A stretch of 64,000 nucleotides of DNA, from positions 3,769 to 67,768 of the forward strand of contig JAAEPT010000129.1 of assembly GCA_024232295.1 (NCBI GenBank), given 5' to 3'. Origin of the DNA: Cytophagales bacterium (GTDB lineage: Bacteria > Bacteroidota > Bacteroidia > Cytophagales > JAAEPT01). Positions within the stretch are counted from its first letter, which is position 1, and each line of letters begins with the position of its first letter. A model generated the notes under the pieces. That model saw nothing but the letters and a program-made list of their open reading frames with translations, was not told the DNA's origin and searched no databases. Position numbers and translations under genes: made by a program. Shown in pieces: positions 1-11,612 of the stretch.

Positions 1-1541
1 TGATAACCTGTGGTAAAAAGTAATTCGTCTTCCAAACTAGAGATACTTGCAAAAAATGGATTTCGAGCATAAAAATACATTAACTCATAACCTGTTTTCT
101 GTTCATGAAAATATTCTAAAGAGACAGGTAATGTTCCTACTGCAATACTTAGAGGATTAATTCCCAAAATGTACCCATGATAGTTAAACCATTTTTGTCC
201 ATAATGATGTCCATTTCTATTGGAAAATGGATTATGAAAACTAACATTTGATTTTTTGTATTTCCTTCTTTTTACTTTCTTAACAGCCTTATCTGCAATA
301 TTTGTCTTAGGTTTTAAGGTATCTACCACCATAGAATCTCCTACTTGTTTGGCAGGCATTAAGTCCCCCAAAACACGATCTTTGCTATTCTTATCAAAAA
401 CTGTCTTGTAATAGCCTGTTATTTTCCCTCGCTTATCATACAACTTCCAAATCCCCGTCTTCTGACCATTTTCAATTGTACCCTCAATTCTCTTTCTACC
501 AGAAGGATAATAACCTACATAAGTACCTGTATCTCCCTTAAAAACACATTCTCCTTCTTTTTTACCATCTTCATAAAAATACTCCCACTTCCCTTCATTT
601 TTACCATCTACCACTTTTCCTCTCACTTTCAAGGTCATATCTTCATAATACTCTTCATAGACTCCTTCCCCTTTCACAAATTCTGCCTTTGCTTTGAATG
701 TACCATCTTGATGATATAATTTCCATGAATTCTCCTTGGCTCCATCTTTATATTCACCTTCAGAACTTACTTCTCCAGATTTGTAATAATTCTTCCAAAC
801 TTCTTCTTTCTTTCCTGCCAAATAACTTCCTTCAGAGCTTACTTCTCCTGAAGTATAGTAATACTTCCAGCGTCCATTTTTAACACCTTTTCGCTCATAA
901 CCTTCAGAAGTCAAGTTTCCATCTGTATCATAATACTTCCACAAACCTTCACTAGTATTATCAACTACAGTACCTTCTGCCTTTTGATTACCATTCAAAT
1001 AGAACTCTTTATAAGACCCTCTCCCTTCATGATAGTTGGCAACTGCCTTTTTTTCTCCACTTTCATAAAAATAAGTCCATTCTCCTTGCTTTTGAGTATT
1101 CAAAAAACTTCCCTCTGACTTTTTCTTACCATTTTCAAAATAAAAAAACCAAACTCCTACTTTCCTTCCTTGCTCCAAACGACCTTTCTTTTCTACTCCT
1201 CCACTCTCGTAGAAATAAGTCCATTCTCCTGTATTATCACCCTCTAGTACAGCCTTCTTCTTTACTCCTCCACCTTCATAGAAGTAAGTCCACTCTCCTA
1301 CAGATTGATTGTTTTTAAACTGTCCTTTGGTAGATACATTTCCATTTTGAAAATAAAGCAAATATTCTCCCTCAATGACAGAAGGATTATTGGTCAAGAT
1401 ATGATACTCTGCTTTTTTCTGTGTTTTTGCCTCATCATACCACAATTCCACTTTCTTGTACTTTTTTGATCCCTGAGCAGATATCCATCCAGAAACTAAA
1501 CAACAAAGCACAAAAATTGAGGTTCGAATAAAATAAGGCAT
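1..1541 (-). CDS. Secreted MORN-variant (YwqK-like) repeat protein with probable C-terminal beta-rich domain; partial, runs off the left edge
   Basis: Manual translation from ATG at 1541: MPYFIRTSIFVLCCLVSGWISAQ (signal peptide), then repeats such as GEWTYFYEGG, GEWTYFYESG, GVWFFYFENG. The frame reads open in the segments I translated, including the last codons at the edge. Absent from the ORF track, probably because no stop lies in the window. Confidence 0.85.
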   Translation of the reverse strand, partial: MPYFIRTSIFVLCCLVSGWISAQGSKKYKKVELWYDEAKTQKKAEYHILTNNPSVIEGEYLLYFQNGNVSTKGQFKNNQSVGEWTYFYEGGGVKKKAVLEGDNTGEWTYFYESGGVEKKGRLEQGRKVGVWFFYFENGKKKSEGSFLNTQKQGEWTYFYESGEKKAVANYHEGRGSYKEFYLNGNQKAEGTVVDNTSEGLWKYYDTDGNLTSEGYERKGVKNGRWKYYYTSGEVSSEGSYLAGKKEEVWKNYYKSGEVSSEGEYKDGAKENSWKLYHQDGTFKAKAEFVKGEGVYEEYYEDMTLKVRGKVVDGKNEGKWEYFYEDGKKEGECVFKGDTGTYVGYYPSGRKRIEGTIENGQKTGIWKLYDKRGKITGYYKTVFDKNSKDRVLGDLMPAKQVGDSMVVDTLKPKTNIADKAVKKVKRRKYKKSNVSFHNPFSNRNGHHYGQKWFNYHGYILGINPLSIAVGTLPVSLEYFHEQKTGYELMYFYARNPFFASISSLEDELLFTTGY

Positions 1542-1640
1542 ACGCAAAGTAGGTTTATAATGAAAAGTACAAATTAAGAATTGAAAAAAGAAGTTAAAAG
1601 CCTATCTTACGTAAGATTAAAGAACCTTAAACCCTTTTCT

Positions 1641-5366: not shown

Positions 5367-5384
5367 ACTACCCTTTTGGGTAGT
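5367..5384. promoter_or_regulatory. Inverted repeat, candidate LuxR/NarL-type operator
   Basis: ACTACCC-TTTT-GGGTAGT, 70 bp upstream of the 5455 start codon. Confidence 0.5.
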
Positions 5385-5454
5385 AGTATCTAAATGATTT
5401 ATGTCGTAGTTTTGAGGGCTAAAAAAATAAATTTAAGAGTACTTCATTTGTATC

Positions 5455-7116
5455 ATGAAAACACGTGTATTAACATTCATCTTTTTTCTTTCAACATTTA
5501 CATTATTCTCTCAAACAGGATTTGATGATAAAATCCAAAAAACAGAGAAACAGCTAAAAGAAGCAGTACAAAATCAAAACTATGAAGAGGCTGCTAAACT
5601 AAAACAAGAGTTGGAAGTTTTACAATTGAAACAAGATTCTGTCATTGTGGCTCAGCAAAAGCTTCAAAAACAAAAAATCTCAATTCAGGAAATAGACATT
5701 GCCTTGGATGGTATTTCGCAAGAAATAGACAAAACACAACAAAAAATGCAGAGAGCAGCTCAAAATCAAGATTATCAAGCTGCAGCTCAATTCAAAACAG
5801 AAATTACTACCCTGACTGCTCAACAAGATTCTTTACAAGAAATCAAACAAAAGCAATTAGCCATCGCACAAAAAGAAAAAGAAGAATTTGAAGCAAAAAG
5901 AAATGAGTTGGCTTCAAAAATTTCAAACAAACAACAAGAAATGGATATGGCTGCTCAGAATCAAGACTATCAAGCAGCAGCAAAATACAAAACAGAACTA
6001 GAGGCTCTCACTGCTCAACAAGATTCTTTGTTACTTACACAACCTAATATTGTTGTAAATACACAACCTCAACCAAATACAAATACTGTAGCAAATAATA
6101 CCAGTCCAACAAATGGTACAGAAGCTACTGAAGAAAGAGTAGGAACAGAAGACCCTACAATTGTTAATAACACAAATACTCCTGTAATCATTAACGAAGC
6201 GACTAGTGAACCAATTGATTCAGCAAAATACAAACTATTAAGAATTCCAGATCAAAGAATGGTTGATAATGTTGGTTTCCAAATCAATGATTTGAATGAA
6301 AAAATCTCAATCGCTTATCAAGCTGAAAACTATGATCGTGTTGCAGCCTTGCAACAAGAAAAAGTATTGAAAGAAAAGATTAGAACTTCTATGCTGAATA
6401 AGGACTATAGTGAATTAGCTAACCTCCAAAAACAATATACTCAAGCAAAAAACAACTCTAAAAATTTCCCAGAAACTCAACGTGAGATCGAAATAAAAAG
6501 AGATATCAAAGAAGCAGAGATTGCTGCTGCAGAATTAGAAGCTCAGAACAACCAACCATCTACAGTAACAACAGACTCTGAGCCTGAACCAACAAATAAT
6601 ACAACAAATACAAATAACAATACTACTTATAATACTAATAACAATACAACAAACAATAACACTACTTATAATACCAACACCAATAACAACACAACAACAA
6701 ATAGTTATCAAAACAATACCAATCAAGACCCTAACAAAAAAATTGCTGAAGGAGGAATTGATATTATCACAAGAACGAATAATGATGCTACTGATGTAGG
6801 ATTGAAAATATGGGGAGGTAACAAAGGATTTTATTCTGCTATAGAATTTGGAGTATCAGAATACAATGAAGATGGGTACTTTTTCTATGATTTAGGATAT
6901 GCCTTATGTTCAAAAGATGTGTATTGGATGATTGGAACAAGACCTTACCTTAGATCTTTTTTATTTGATGATGGAGATGCAACAGCAACGTTCATTACAC
7001 AAGTTGGAGTTTACCATAAATATGTAGGGTTTTCTACAATGCTAGAAGTTAGTGCTGAAGGTGATGTTGGCTTTGATATTGGTCTTTCTGTACGATTTGG
7101 AAATACATTTAAATAA
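5455..7116 (+). CDS. Secreted coiled-coil protein with ~5 UvrB/UvrC(UVR)-like motifs and a probable small C-terminal outer-membrane beta-barrel
   Basis: Signal peptide; repeats LKEAVQNQNYEEAAKLKQEL, MQRAAQNQDYQAAAQFKTEI, MDMAAQNQDYQAAAKYKTEL and two weaker copies; Asn/Thr linkers; last ~125 aa show alternating hydrophobic strands ending GLSVRFGNTFK. Confidence 0.75.
   Translation: MKTRVLTFIFFLSTFTLFSQTGFDDKIQKTEKQLKEAVQNQNYEEAAKLKQELEVLQLKQDSVIVAQQKLQKQKISIQEIDIALDGISQEIDKTQQKMQRAAQNQDYQAAAQFKTEITTLTAQQDSLQEIKQKQLAIAQKEKEEFEAKRNELASKISNKQQEMDMAAQNQDYQAAAKYKTELEALTAQQDSLLLTQPNIVVNTQPQPNTNTVANNTSPTNGTEATEERVGTEDPTIVNNTNTPVIINEATSEPIDSAKYKLLRIPDQRMVDNVGFQINDLNEKISIAYQAENYDRVAALQQEKVLKEKIRTSMLNKDYSELANLQKQYTQAKNNSKNFPETQREIEIKRDIKEAEIAAAELEAQNNQPSTVTTDSEPEPTNNTTNTNNNTTYNTNNNTTNNNTTYNTNTNNNTTTNSYQNNTNQDPNKKIAEGGIDIITRTNNDATDVGLKIWGGNKGFYSAIEFGVSEYNEDGYFFYDLGYALCSKDVYWMIGTRPYLRSFLFDDGDATATFITQVGVYHKYVGFSTMLEVSAEGDVGFDIGLSVRFGNTFK
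6595..6722 (+). repeat. Asn/Thr low-complexity coding repeat (TNNNTTYN-like units)
   Basis: AAT/AAC/ACA-rich imperfect tandem repeats in frame within the 5455 CDS. Confidence 0.8.
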
Positions 7117-10145: not shown

Positions 10146-11612
10146 ATGAAATACTTACCAATTTTCGCACTCATATTTCTTGTTTTAGGCTGTAAAAAAT
10201 ATGAAATAGAACCTGAACAATTAAAAATCAAAAGAATTACAGCAAATAATAATGATGATGATTATTCTTCTAGTAATAGTAATTCTGTGGTAGATCTAGA
10301 GTGGACAGCAGCAAGTAAAGTTAGTAAATTAAAATATACTACAAGCACCTCATTTCCATATCCGCAAAGTAATATTATTTACAATGAGAACAATGAAGCT
10401 ACTAGTATGCTTTATTATCCATCAACTGGAGGTACTCCAGTTGTTTATTCAATTTCTGTCGAAGACAATATCTACAGTATTGAAAGTGAAAATGAAAACT
10501 ATTCCAGCTATTACTATTCTATTAATGAAGAAGGTCAAATCTCTGGATTTATTGATAATTCATTGACACTGGTAAGATTTGAATATGAAACAGATGGAGT
10601 TATCATCAGTGTTTATGAAGATGACAGGTTTAAAACAAAATACAAAGCTTATTACACAACTAGAGAAATTCAAAACCCAATTAATCAACTACCTGTATGG
10701 TTGTATTATCAAGTAATTGCAGGTTCATTACCTAGTGGATCGTTATACAAACCTGGTTATCAACAATATAACATACATGATTTTTGGTATTTAATACTAG
10801 AAAAAACCGTTGATAAAGTTGAATACTACAAAGGAGGAGAATCATCTGATGATGTTGATTTTACAATTGGCTACACTATGGATATAGACTTCAATGATTA
10901 TTGTAGAAGTCTTGATTATTTTGATTACTCTACTTATCCTGAAAATATTTCCTTTAAATTTGATATGGTCAATCCTCAAACCTCAAATATTTCTAGCACA
11001 GATACAACTGAAGTTGGAGATGTGATTGTGGAAGAAGAGGAAGAAGAAGAGACAAATAATGATGGAGTAAGAGGGAAAGTAAGTGACGTAGAAGGAAACA
11101 GTTATGAAACTGTTCAAATTGGTGAGCAAATTTGGATGGCAGAAAACTTAAGGACGACAAAGTATAATAATGGACAATCCATCGAAATAGAAACAGATAA
11201 TTCTGATTGGAATCAAAGATCACTTAATAATGATTTGATGTGTTTCTATGATAACAATACAAGTAAACATGCCTTATACAATTTTAGAGTAGCAACCAAT
11301 GGCAATGTATGTCCTACAGGATGGAGTGTTCCCACAAAAAGTGATTGGGAAACTTTTAATAATTATACTGATGAAAAGAATAATGATTTCAACTTTAATA
11401 GTGTATTAGAAGAATCAAGATCTGGAGCTGGCTTTTTCTATAGCTATAATGCATCTCCTCAATACAAAAGTGAATATTGGTGGAGTCGTACAGGAAATGG
11501 TTCAAATACAGCTTATGCCAATAGACATTGGTCTCTGAATGGTCCTAACTTTGATTTAGGAAGTGGTTATAGTAGAGGTGATGGAAATCCTATCCGATGT
11601 ATTAAAGACTAA
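10146..11612 (+). CDS. Lipoprotein with C-terminal FISUMP (Fibrobacter succinogenes major paralogous) domain
   Basis: Lipobox LVLGC; FISUMP signature SDVEGNSYETVQIGEQIWMAENLRTTKY, ALYNF, CPTGWSVPTKSDW, terminal PIRCIKD. Confidence 0.9.
   Translation: MKYLPIFALIFLVLGCKKYEIEPEQLKIKRITANNNDDDYSSSNSNSVVDLEWTAASKVSKLKYTTSTSFPYPQSNIIYNENNEATSMLYYPSTGGTPVVYSISVEDNIYSIESENENYSSYYYSINEEGQISGFIDNSLTLVRFEYETDGVIISVYEDDRFKTKYKAYYTTREIQNPINQLPVWLYYQVIAGSLPSGSLYKPGYQQYNIHDFWYLILEKTVDKVEYYKGGESSDDVDFTIGYTMDIDFNDYCRSLDYFDYSTYPENISFKFDMVNPQTSNISSTDTTEVGDVIVEEEEEEETNNDGVRGKVSDVEGNSYETVQIGEQIWMAENLRTTKYNNGQSIEIETDNSDWNQRSLNNDLMCFYDNNTSKHALYNFRVATNGNVCPTGWSVPTKSDWETFNNYTDEKNNDFNFNSVLEESRSGAGFFYSYNASPQYKSEYWWSRTGNGSNTAYANRHWSLNGPNFDLGSGYSRGDGNPIRCIKD

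Follow-up and report, generated by a model that had tools for sequence, protein, structure and literature searches.

UVR hairpins are cytoplasmic docking elements that serve in the UvrB–UvrC handover and in the regulation of ClpC, and they pair mutually into four-helix bundles, as in UvrB–UvrB and UvrB–UvrC. Here, we describe an open reading frame (ORF) at positions 5455–7116 of a 64,000-nucleotide stretch of DNA from a marine Cytophagales bacterium (GenBank assembly GCA_024232295.1, contig JAAEPT010000129.1, positions 3,769 to 67,768 of the forward strand; the whole stretch is hereafter called the window). Its product of 553 amino acids (aa) is predicted to be exported, and joins an array of UVR motifs (Pfam family PF02151) to a C-terminal β domain of its own kind (the tail, aa 431–553). 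As for the UVR motifs of UvrB, UvrC, ClpC, and BFN-type nucleases, the copies have the core A-x4-[DN]-[YF]-x-x-A-A and a predicted helix-turn-helix structure; unlike those, they are located behind a signal peptide and form tandem arrays of three to five per protein. Judged by sequence, what is new is an architectural variant of a known motif family, found in a singleton orphan. Our literature searches returned no publication in which exported or periplasmic UVR domains are described.

The tail invites comparison with the small 8-stranded barrels of the outer membrane, such as the transmembrane domain of OmpA, OmpX/Ail, and the OMP_b-brl families (PF13505/PF13568). It shares with them amphipathic strands, short turns on one side, a high content of Gly and aromatic residues, and a last strand of which one face is entirely hydrophobic, but differs in lacking any match to a hidden Markov model and in being about 60 aa shorter than the small barrels of the host genome. 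OmpA carries a C-terminal OmpA-like domain, whereas the extension in the present protein is N-terminal, 410 aa long, and proposed to be periplasmic. A further likeness is to Skp/OmpH and Spy/CpxP, which are exported, ATP-independent proteins working through long amphipathic α-hairpins, those of Skp projecting from a small β body. The hairpins described here are instead separated from the β domain by disordered linkers and not inserted into it, and a Pfam scan of the whole protein at E ≤ 1 gave no match to PF03938, PF07813, or PF13801.

UVR repeats and connecting segments

PF02151 matches the 553-aa protein in three stretches, with a total of 57.4 bits (E 9.4e-16), and each of the three copies scanned alone exceeds the curated gathering cut-off of 21.5 bits (Table 1). 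None of ten composition-preserving shuffles of aa 21–375 gave a UVR match at E ≤ 10. When a profile of the exported-type UVR units was searched against the PDB, the best natural matches were C-terminal hairpins of UvrB (3uwx_B, 2d7d_B, and 2nmv_B) and the ClpC M-domain. The original prediction for this DNA, made from the letters and their translations, had counted about five copies. A search by motif pattern returns four complete copies and half of a fifth, whose N/D-Y cores are located at aa 42, 106, 171, 292, and 317. Copies 1–3 stand at the Pfam level, but copies 4 and 5 (aa 263–340) are degenerate and without any Pfam match at E ≤ 10. The second-helix signature A-A-x-x-R-D is not kept, the copies reading AAKLKQE, AAQFKTE, and AAKYKTE, with Lys for Arg and without the Asp.

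AlphaFold2, run on the single sequence, predicts helix-turn-helix hairpins with turns at aa 40–42, 104–106, and 169–171, each at the N-x-D/N-Y core, and a predicted local distance difference test (pLDDT) score of 74–91. The helix pairs are 21–39/43–72, 77–103/107–168, and 107–168/172–193, such that one 62-residue helix is common to copies 2 and 3, and aa 77–193 are predicted to form an elongated rod. A Foldseek search with the model of the whole protein returned no match at E ≤ 0.001. The three motifs are thus genuine by sequence score and predicted helical hairpins by modeling, as had been anticipated for the repeats.

Copies 2 and 3 had also been described as duplicates at the DNA level, and indeed positions 5731–5834 and 5926–6029 align over 104 nt with 79% identity. 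In a 35-codon core, the proportions of synonymous and non-synonymous differences (pS and pN) are 0.49 and 0.15, respectively, corresponding to a dN/dS ratio (non-synonymous to synonymous) of 0.22. Because of this high pS and low dN/dS, the duplication must be old and the motif kept at the protein level, and the ratio also argues for translation of the ORF. The ORF is a real gene under purifying selection. The ATG at 5455 (M1) is the sole possible start upstream of UVR copy 1, with no ATG, GTG, or TTG among codons 2–25, and the G+C content around the gene is 30–33%. As a separate observation, copies 2 and 3 are each followed by LTAQQ (5815–5829 and 6010–6024), a fit to the LTxxQ pattern known from periplasmic proteins of the CpxP/Spy type; it has no Pfam support and is possibly a coincidence.

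The array and the tail are connected by two linkers and a second helical module (Table 1), in which AlphaFold2 places helices at aa 267–291, 293–314, 318–336, and 342–365. Linker 2 is partly encoded by imperfect tandem DNA repeats at 6597–6700 with periods of 12, 24, and 39, a pattern that suggests length variation of this linker driven by slippage.

Export signal

Of all 19-residue windows in the protein, only that at the N-terminus is strongly hydrophobic. The N-terminus reads MKTRVLTFIFFLSTFTLFS/QTG, where the slash marks the predicted cleavage site, and comprises a basic n-region and a 14-residue h-region, with no lipobox and with Gln at position +1. Gln at +1 after signal-peptide cleavage is the Q-rule of Bacteroidetes (PMC5837995, PMC10653852). 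The host genome keeps this rule, since [ASGCT]Q is present in the c-region of 54% of its ORFs with signal-peptide-like N-termini, compared with a background of 12%. By these sequence features the UVR-array protein is exported, in agreement with the original prediction.

The motif D-S-[VL] is an O-glycosylation sequon of Bacteroidota (PMC8550257). Four D-S-[VLA] sequons are present in the protein, at aa 61, 125, 190, and 255 (5635–5643, 5827–5835, 6022–6030, and 6217–6225). Three of the D-S-[VL] type occupy an equal position directly after UVR copies 1–3; the expected number in aa 21–196 is 0.42, and two of the three observed stem from one duplication. The sequons are a weak hint that the protein is located outside the cytoplasm.

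The C-terminal β domain

About eight amphipathic strands had been noted in the tail, and AlphaFold2, given the tail alone, places eight consecutive strands of 9–12 residues there (pLDDT 60, predicted template modeling score 0.43). The turns are 2, 2, 4, 3, 9, 2, and 4 residues long and all connections are between nearest neighbours; in a barrel, the predicted periplasmic turns would have 2–3 residues and the outer loops 2–9. The last strand, VGFDIGLSVRF, has one face composed of VFILVF and another of GDGSRG, and the known barrels of the host genome likewise carry 1–2 residues past the last aromatic. Strands with an uncharged hydrophobic face, which we refer to as transmembrane-β-like, cover 26.8% of the tail and 26–50% of the known barrels of the genome (OMP_b-brl). 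In the type IX secretion system (T9SS) C-terminal sorting domains (CTDs) of the same genome, the coverage is at most 24% for type B and on average 9% for type A. In composition and strand pattern, the tail is closer to the genome's known barrels than to its 111 CTDs. Although no Foldseek match of the tail model to the PDB reached E ≤ 0.001, the list of weak matches is rich in outer-membrane barrels (EspP-in-BAM, invasin, the OmpA transmembrane domain 1qjp, Ail, OmpG, LptD, and Flavobacterium johnsoniae BamA).

The β-signal of outer-membrane proteins has the consensus ζ-x-G-x-x-[aromatic/hydrophobic]-x-[aromatic/hydrophobic] (PMC10945584), and DIGLSVRF (aa 541–548) in the last strand fits it. 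This motif does not discriminate in the host genome, where 1.3% of all ORFs, and none of eight known barrels, match the strict pattern. Several other results also count against a membrane barrel. The tail gave nothing relevant in searches of Pfam (E ≤ 10), NCBIfam, and PDB sequences (phmmer), hhalign against eight barrels of the host genome gave a probability of 0.3, and the best Foldseek match had an E of 0.037, with TM-scores of at most 0.56. The AlphaFold2 model is of low confidence and derived from a single sequence, and at 123 aa the tail would be an exceptionally small barrel among natural ones with eight strands, the known small barrels of the host genome having about 180 aa. The proposal of a membrane barrel is favoured by composition and strand pattern only, and finds no counterpart in any of the family, profile, or structure comparisons; we regard a small outer-membrane barrel as an evenly balanced possibility for the tail. 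A trimeric-autotransporter anchor was rejected, because the tail has eight strands rather than four, is preceded by a disordered linker and not by a coiled coil, and matches Hia in Foldseek only partially, over 60 columns.

Relatives and a second exported UVR family

The 553-aa protein is an orphan singleton by all sequence searches made. A phmmer search with the tail against 1.84 billion representative proteins returned only the query, as did a search with aa 21–200 and one with the whole protein against 5.8 billion proteins, the latter being swamped by low-complexity words. Nothing real was found with the UVR-array protein in 40 relatives, nothing in a scan of genome contigs, no paralogue of the tail in the host genome, and no real match to the tail in 200 genomes of the order. 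A weak tail match in genome G175 falls in the middle of a FISUMP protein and is spurious, and a further match, C120, is to a cytoplasmic protein.

In the host genome, the other UVR carriers are a ClpC/ClpB-type AAA+ protein, UvrB, and UvrC only, all of them cytoplasmic, and no second exported UVR protein is present. Among the UVR matches listed for 121 genomes of the order, all lie in ORFs sized as UvrB, UvrC, ClpC, or an approximately 200-aa BFN nuclease. Profiles of the repeats matched almost only BFN-type proteins when searched against 300 genomes of the class and 400 of the phylum, and no other ORF in these genomes had four repeat matches. Two candidates for exported UVR proteins were rejected: a 410-aa ORF (L046) proved to be an over-extended BFN nuclease ORF, and in a 1049-aa ORF (L025) the match falls inside a SPOR-repeat protein.

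The class search did identify a second exported family. Its first representative (L029:331–1866, minus strand, genome G406) is 511 aa long, starts with the signal peptide MKKSLFILLMSLSFCSFA/QK, and carries two UVR motifs (37.6 bits). The family comprises 16 clusters (P0002–P0017) of about 300–520 aa, one member of which bears the NCBI name 'UvrB/UvrC motif-containing protein'. All six members inspected have a signal peptide and 2–4 tandem UVR copies, followed by unrelated globular domains, namely a beta-rich domain (with a precomputed PF26012 assignment in some members) and an alpha/beta domain. As in the 553-aa protein, the signal peptide ends in F[ASG]Q and leads directly into a UVR array with Lys for Arg and then a low-complexity linker, and the arrays of P0014 and the 553-aa protein align at E 7e-9 with 30% identity. 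The C-terminal parts differ from the 8-strand barrel-like tail, the family has 16 clusters as opposed to a singleton, and whole-protein and tail searches gave no homology to the 553-aa protein beyond the arrays. The gene context of the family also differs from that described here, is not conserved, and offers no clue to function. Because of this second family, export of UVR arrays appears to be rare but recurrent in Bacteroidia. The view of UVR motifs as strictly cytoplasmic, from which the original prediction started, therefore requires some qualification.

Proposed architecture and alternatives

We tentatively favour, at somewhat short of even confidence, a Sec-exported, outer-membrane-anchored and lineage-specific envelope protein with self-pairing UVR arrays below the outer membrane. 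The mature protein would start at Q20 with a rod of about 175 aa, composed of three UVR α-hairpins joined by long helices. The remainder would consist of a second helical module, some 100 aa in length and containing two decayed hairpins, a pair of disordered N/T-rich tethers with about 65 aa apiece, and, at the end, the 123-aa tail. The tail would be a minimal 8-stranded outer-membrane β-barrel with both ends in the periplasm, into which the arrays would hang on their flexible tethers. Since UVR hairpins pair mutually, and since the other UVR proteins in the genome are cytoplasmic, the arrays would most likely pair with themselves, within or between molecules. Anchored in the outer membrane and extending beneath it, the protein would thereby form a coiled-coil scaffold or spacer, and would be expressed with two downstream envelope proteins. 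We infer the membrane insertion, the periplasmic orientation, the self-pairing, and any link to the neighbouring genes. Docking of the products of the 7125 and 10146 genes, as originally proposed, might be conjectured from gene order. In addition to the objections raised above for the tail, the UVR-array protein is known from one draft genome only, and comparative support is therefore absent. Furthermore, the copies have Lys where canonical UVR motifs have the Arg of the R-D pair, and their pairing behaviour may differ from the canonical one.

A soluble β domain is an unlikely identity for the tail. Equally unlikely is the corresponding reading of the whole protein, in which a periplasmic or released product would end in a soluble β-sandwich or a small ligand-binding β-barrel, with the UVR rods serving to oligomerise or space. 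The absence of any barrel-family match and the short length of the tail would both fit such a protein, alternating hydrophobic and polar strands occur in soluble β proteins too, and the P0002–P0017 family sets a precedent for UVR arrays joined to apparently soluble globular domains. Against this speak the Gly content, the aromatics, and the uncharged hydrophobic faces of the tail, which lie within the range of outer-membrane barrels and above that of the soluble CTD sandwiches, as well as the predicted topology, in which every connection is a hairpin between adjacent strands and the turns on one side are very short.

Some T9SS cargoes of Flavobacterium have CTDs that match neither TIGR04183 nor TIGR04131, and the tail could by analogy be a novel T9SS signal, which we regard as improbable. 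The same applies to the full reading of the protein as T9SS cargo with a novel sorting domain and UVR rods that are displayed on the surface or released. The order of signal peptide, modules, low-complexity linker, and a C-terminal β domain of about 100 aa is typical of cargo, and the host, a T9SS-bearing member of the Bacteroidota as judged by CTD models, is very rich in it. The models for type A (TIGR04183/PF18962) and type B (TIGR04131/PF13585) nevertheless do not match the tail at E ≤ 10, and none of the 84 + 27 = 111 CTD matches above cut-off across the genome lies within ORF 5455–7116. The composition of the tail is moreover outside the CTD ranges, and there is no PorP/SprF-type gene 3′ of the ORF. 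Independently of the tail, 84 type-A and 27 type-B matches represent a very large T9SS cargo repertoire for a 2.9-Mb genome.

It is distinctly improbable that the likeness to UVR motifs reflects convergence of a Q/A/K/E-rich coiled coil in a fast-evolving orphan with no specific docking role. The orphan status, the decay of copies 4 and 5 past Pfam recognition, the low-complexity and slippage-prone linkers, and the replaced R-D pair would all be expected of such a protein. They are countered by the three separate scores above cut-off together with the failure of shuffles to match, the return of UvrB and ClpC in the reciprocal PDB profile search, the conservation of the motif at the protein level, and the recurrence of the Lys-for-Arg variant in the P0002–P0017 family. 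Least probable of all is a periplasmic holdase or assembly factor of the Skp or Spy type, with helical arms cradling unfolded clients, here the 1002-aa outer-membrane protein (OMP)-like product of the next gene. This reading could draw on the compact operon that the UVR gene shares with a large orphan, OMP-like in its C-terminal half, on the flexible amphipathic-helix arms, and on LTAQQ after copies 2 and 3, but relies on gene order in a single genome, and no chaperone family, OmpH/Skp and LTXXQ/CpxP included, was matched in Pfam at E ≤ 1.

The favoured reading of an outer-membrane-anchored, self-pairing scaffold can be extended to a more general, and in our view doubtful, proposal. Tandem UVR arrays would then be an unrecognised extracytoplasmic interaction module of Bacteroidota, recruited at least two times and here placed on an 8-strand barrel that, at about 120 aa, would rank with the smallest occurring naturally in outer membranes, as a self-pairing scaffold serving an operon-encoded, lineage-specific surface apparatus. 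If true, a function of UVR motifs in the cell envelope would widen the known role of the motif and add to the poorly understood periplasm of Bacteroidota a coiled-coil connector that is simple and modular. Research on OMP folding and design would have an interest in a natural barrel as small as about 120 aa that carries a long periplasmic tether. What limits the significance is that the protein is a singleton of one draft genome and that its partner proteins are orphans too.

Gene neighbourhood

The features of the locus are collected in Table 1.

Table 1. Positions in the window of the UVR-array gene, its encoded segments, and adjacent features.
Feature	Position	Strand	Basis or remark
Perfect 18-bp palindrome ACTACCCTTTTGGGTAGT, candidate operator	5367..5384	.	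Divergent intergenic region, 70 nt 5′ of ATG
TAGTTTTG, match to −7 promoter motif TAnnTTTG	5407..5414	+	Ends 40 nt 5′ of ATG; pattern match only
Gene for exported UVR-array protein, 553 aa	5455..7116, stop codon included	+	ORF call, Pfam, dN/dS 0.22 between internal duplicates
Sec/signal peptidase I (SPI) signal peptide, aa 1–19, predicted cleavage S19/Q20	5455..5511	+	Q-rule; lipobox Cys absent
UVR copy 1, aa 25–57	5527..5625	+	33.6 bits scanned alone
UVR copy 2, aa 89–120	5719..5814	+	30.4 bits scanned alone; duplicate of copy 3
UVR copy 3, aa 155–185	5917..6009	+	23.3 bits scanned alone; duplicate of copy 2
Linker 1, aa 197–262, T/N/P-rich, predicted disordered	6043..6240	+	Composition; AlphaFold2 pLDDT about 29
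Second helical module, aa 267–365	6253..6549	+	Two degenerate UVR-like hairpins (cores aa 292, 317) and a further helix; pattern match, AlphaFold2
Linker 2, aa 366–430, Asn/Thr tract, predicted disordered	6550..6744	+	Sequence, AlphaFold2
C-terminal β domain, 123 aa (aa 431–553)	6745..7113	+	8 predicted strands; 13.8% Gly, 17.9% aromatic
Exported orphan, 1002 aa	7125..10133	+	8-nt gap to UVR gene; OMP-like C-terminal half ending in YFWIF
Lipoprotein with C-terminal FISUMP domain	10146..11612	+	12-nt gap to 1002-aa ORF

The divergent intergenic region upstream of the UVR gene is 251 nt long and shared with an AidH-like/PAS-LuxR pair. Since both flanking genes point away from it, the palindrome in this region cannot be a terminator. 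The exact 21-mer AAAACTACCCTTTTGGGTAGT of the palindrome region has only two copies in the 2.94-Mb genome, the second of which (C33:89712) is located 59 nt 5′ of a T9SS-cargo gene, and the palindrome is a candidate operator for a regulator common to both sites. TAnnTTTG, matched closer to the start codon, is the −7 motif of sigma-A promoters in Bacteroidota.

Because of the short gaps of 8 and 12 nt, the genes at 5455, 7125, and 10146 probably form one operon, and the two downstream genes are probably co-transcribed with the UVR gene. A UVR-like core is present in neither of their products. The last 463 aa of the 1002-aa protein are similar in character to outer-membrane barrels (11% Gly, 14% aromatics, and a transmembrane-β-like coverage of 26%). 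This region is preceded by a 20-aa hydrophobic helix, and the protein ends in SSGWNLSYFWIF with a β-signal-like motif. BLASTP of the tail against this neighbour gave nothing, and searches of 12 genomes from the family and 200 from the order returned no relative of the 1002-aa protein. Among relatives with a syntenic right flank (a FemAB-like gene, mdh at 88% identity, and an mbnH block), the closest one is without the three-gene cluster. In G175:C91 (L012), a FISUMP-domain protein adjoins an exported MORN-repeat protein, and proteins of both types also flank the cluster in the window (3–1547 and 10146–11612), so FISUMP and MORN-repeat proteins may be loosely associated.

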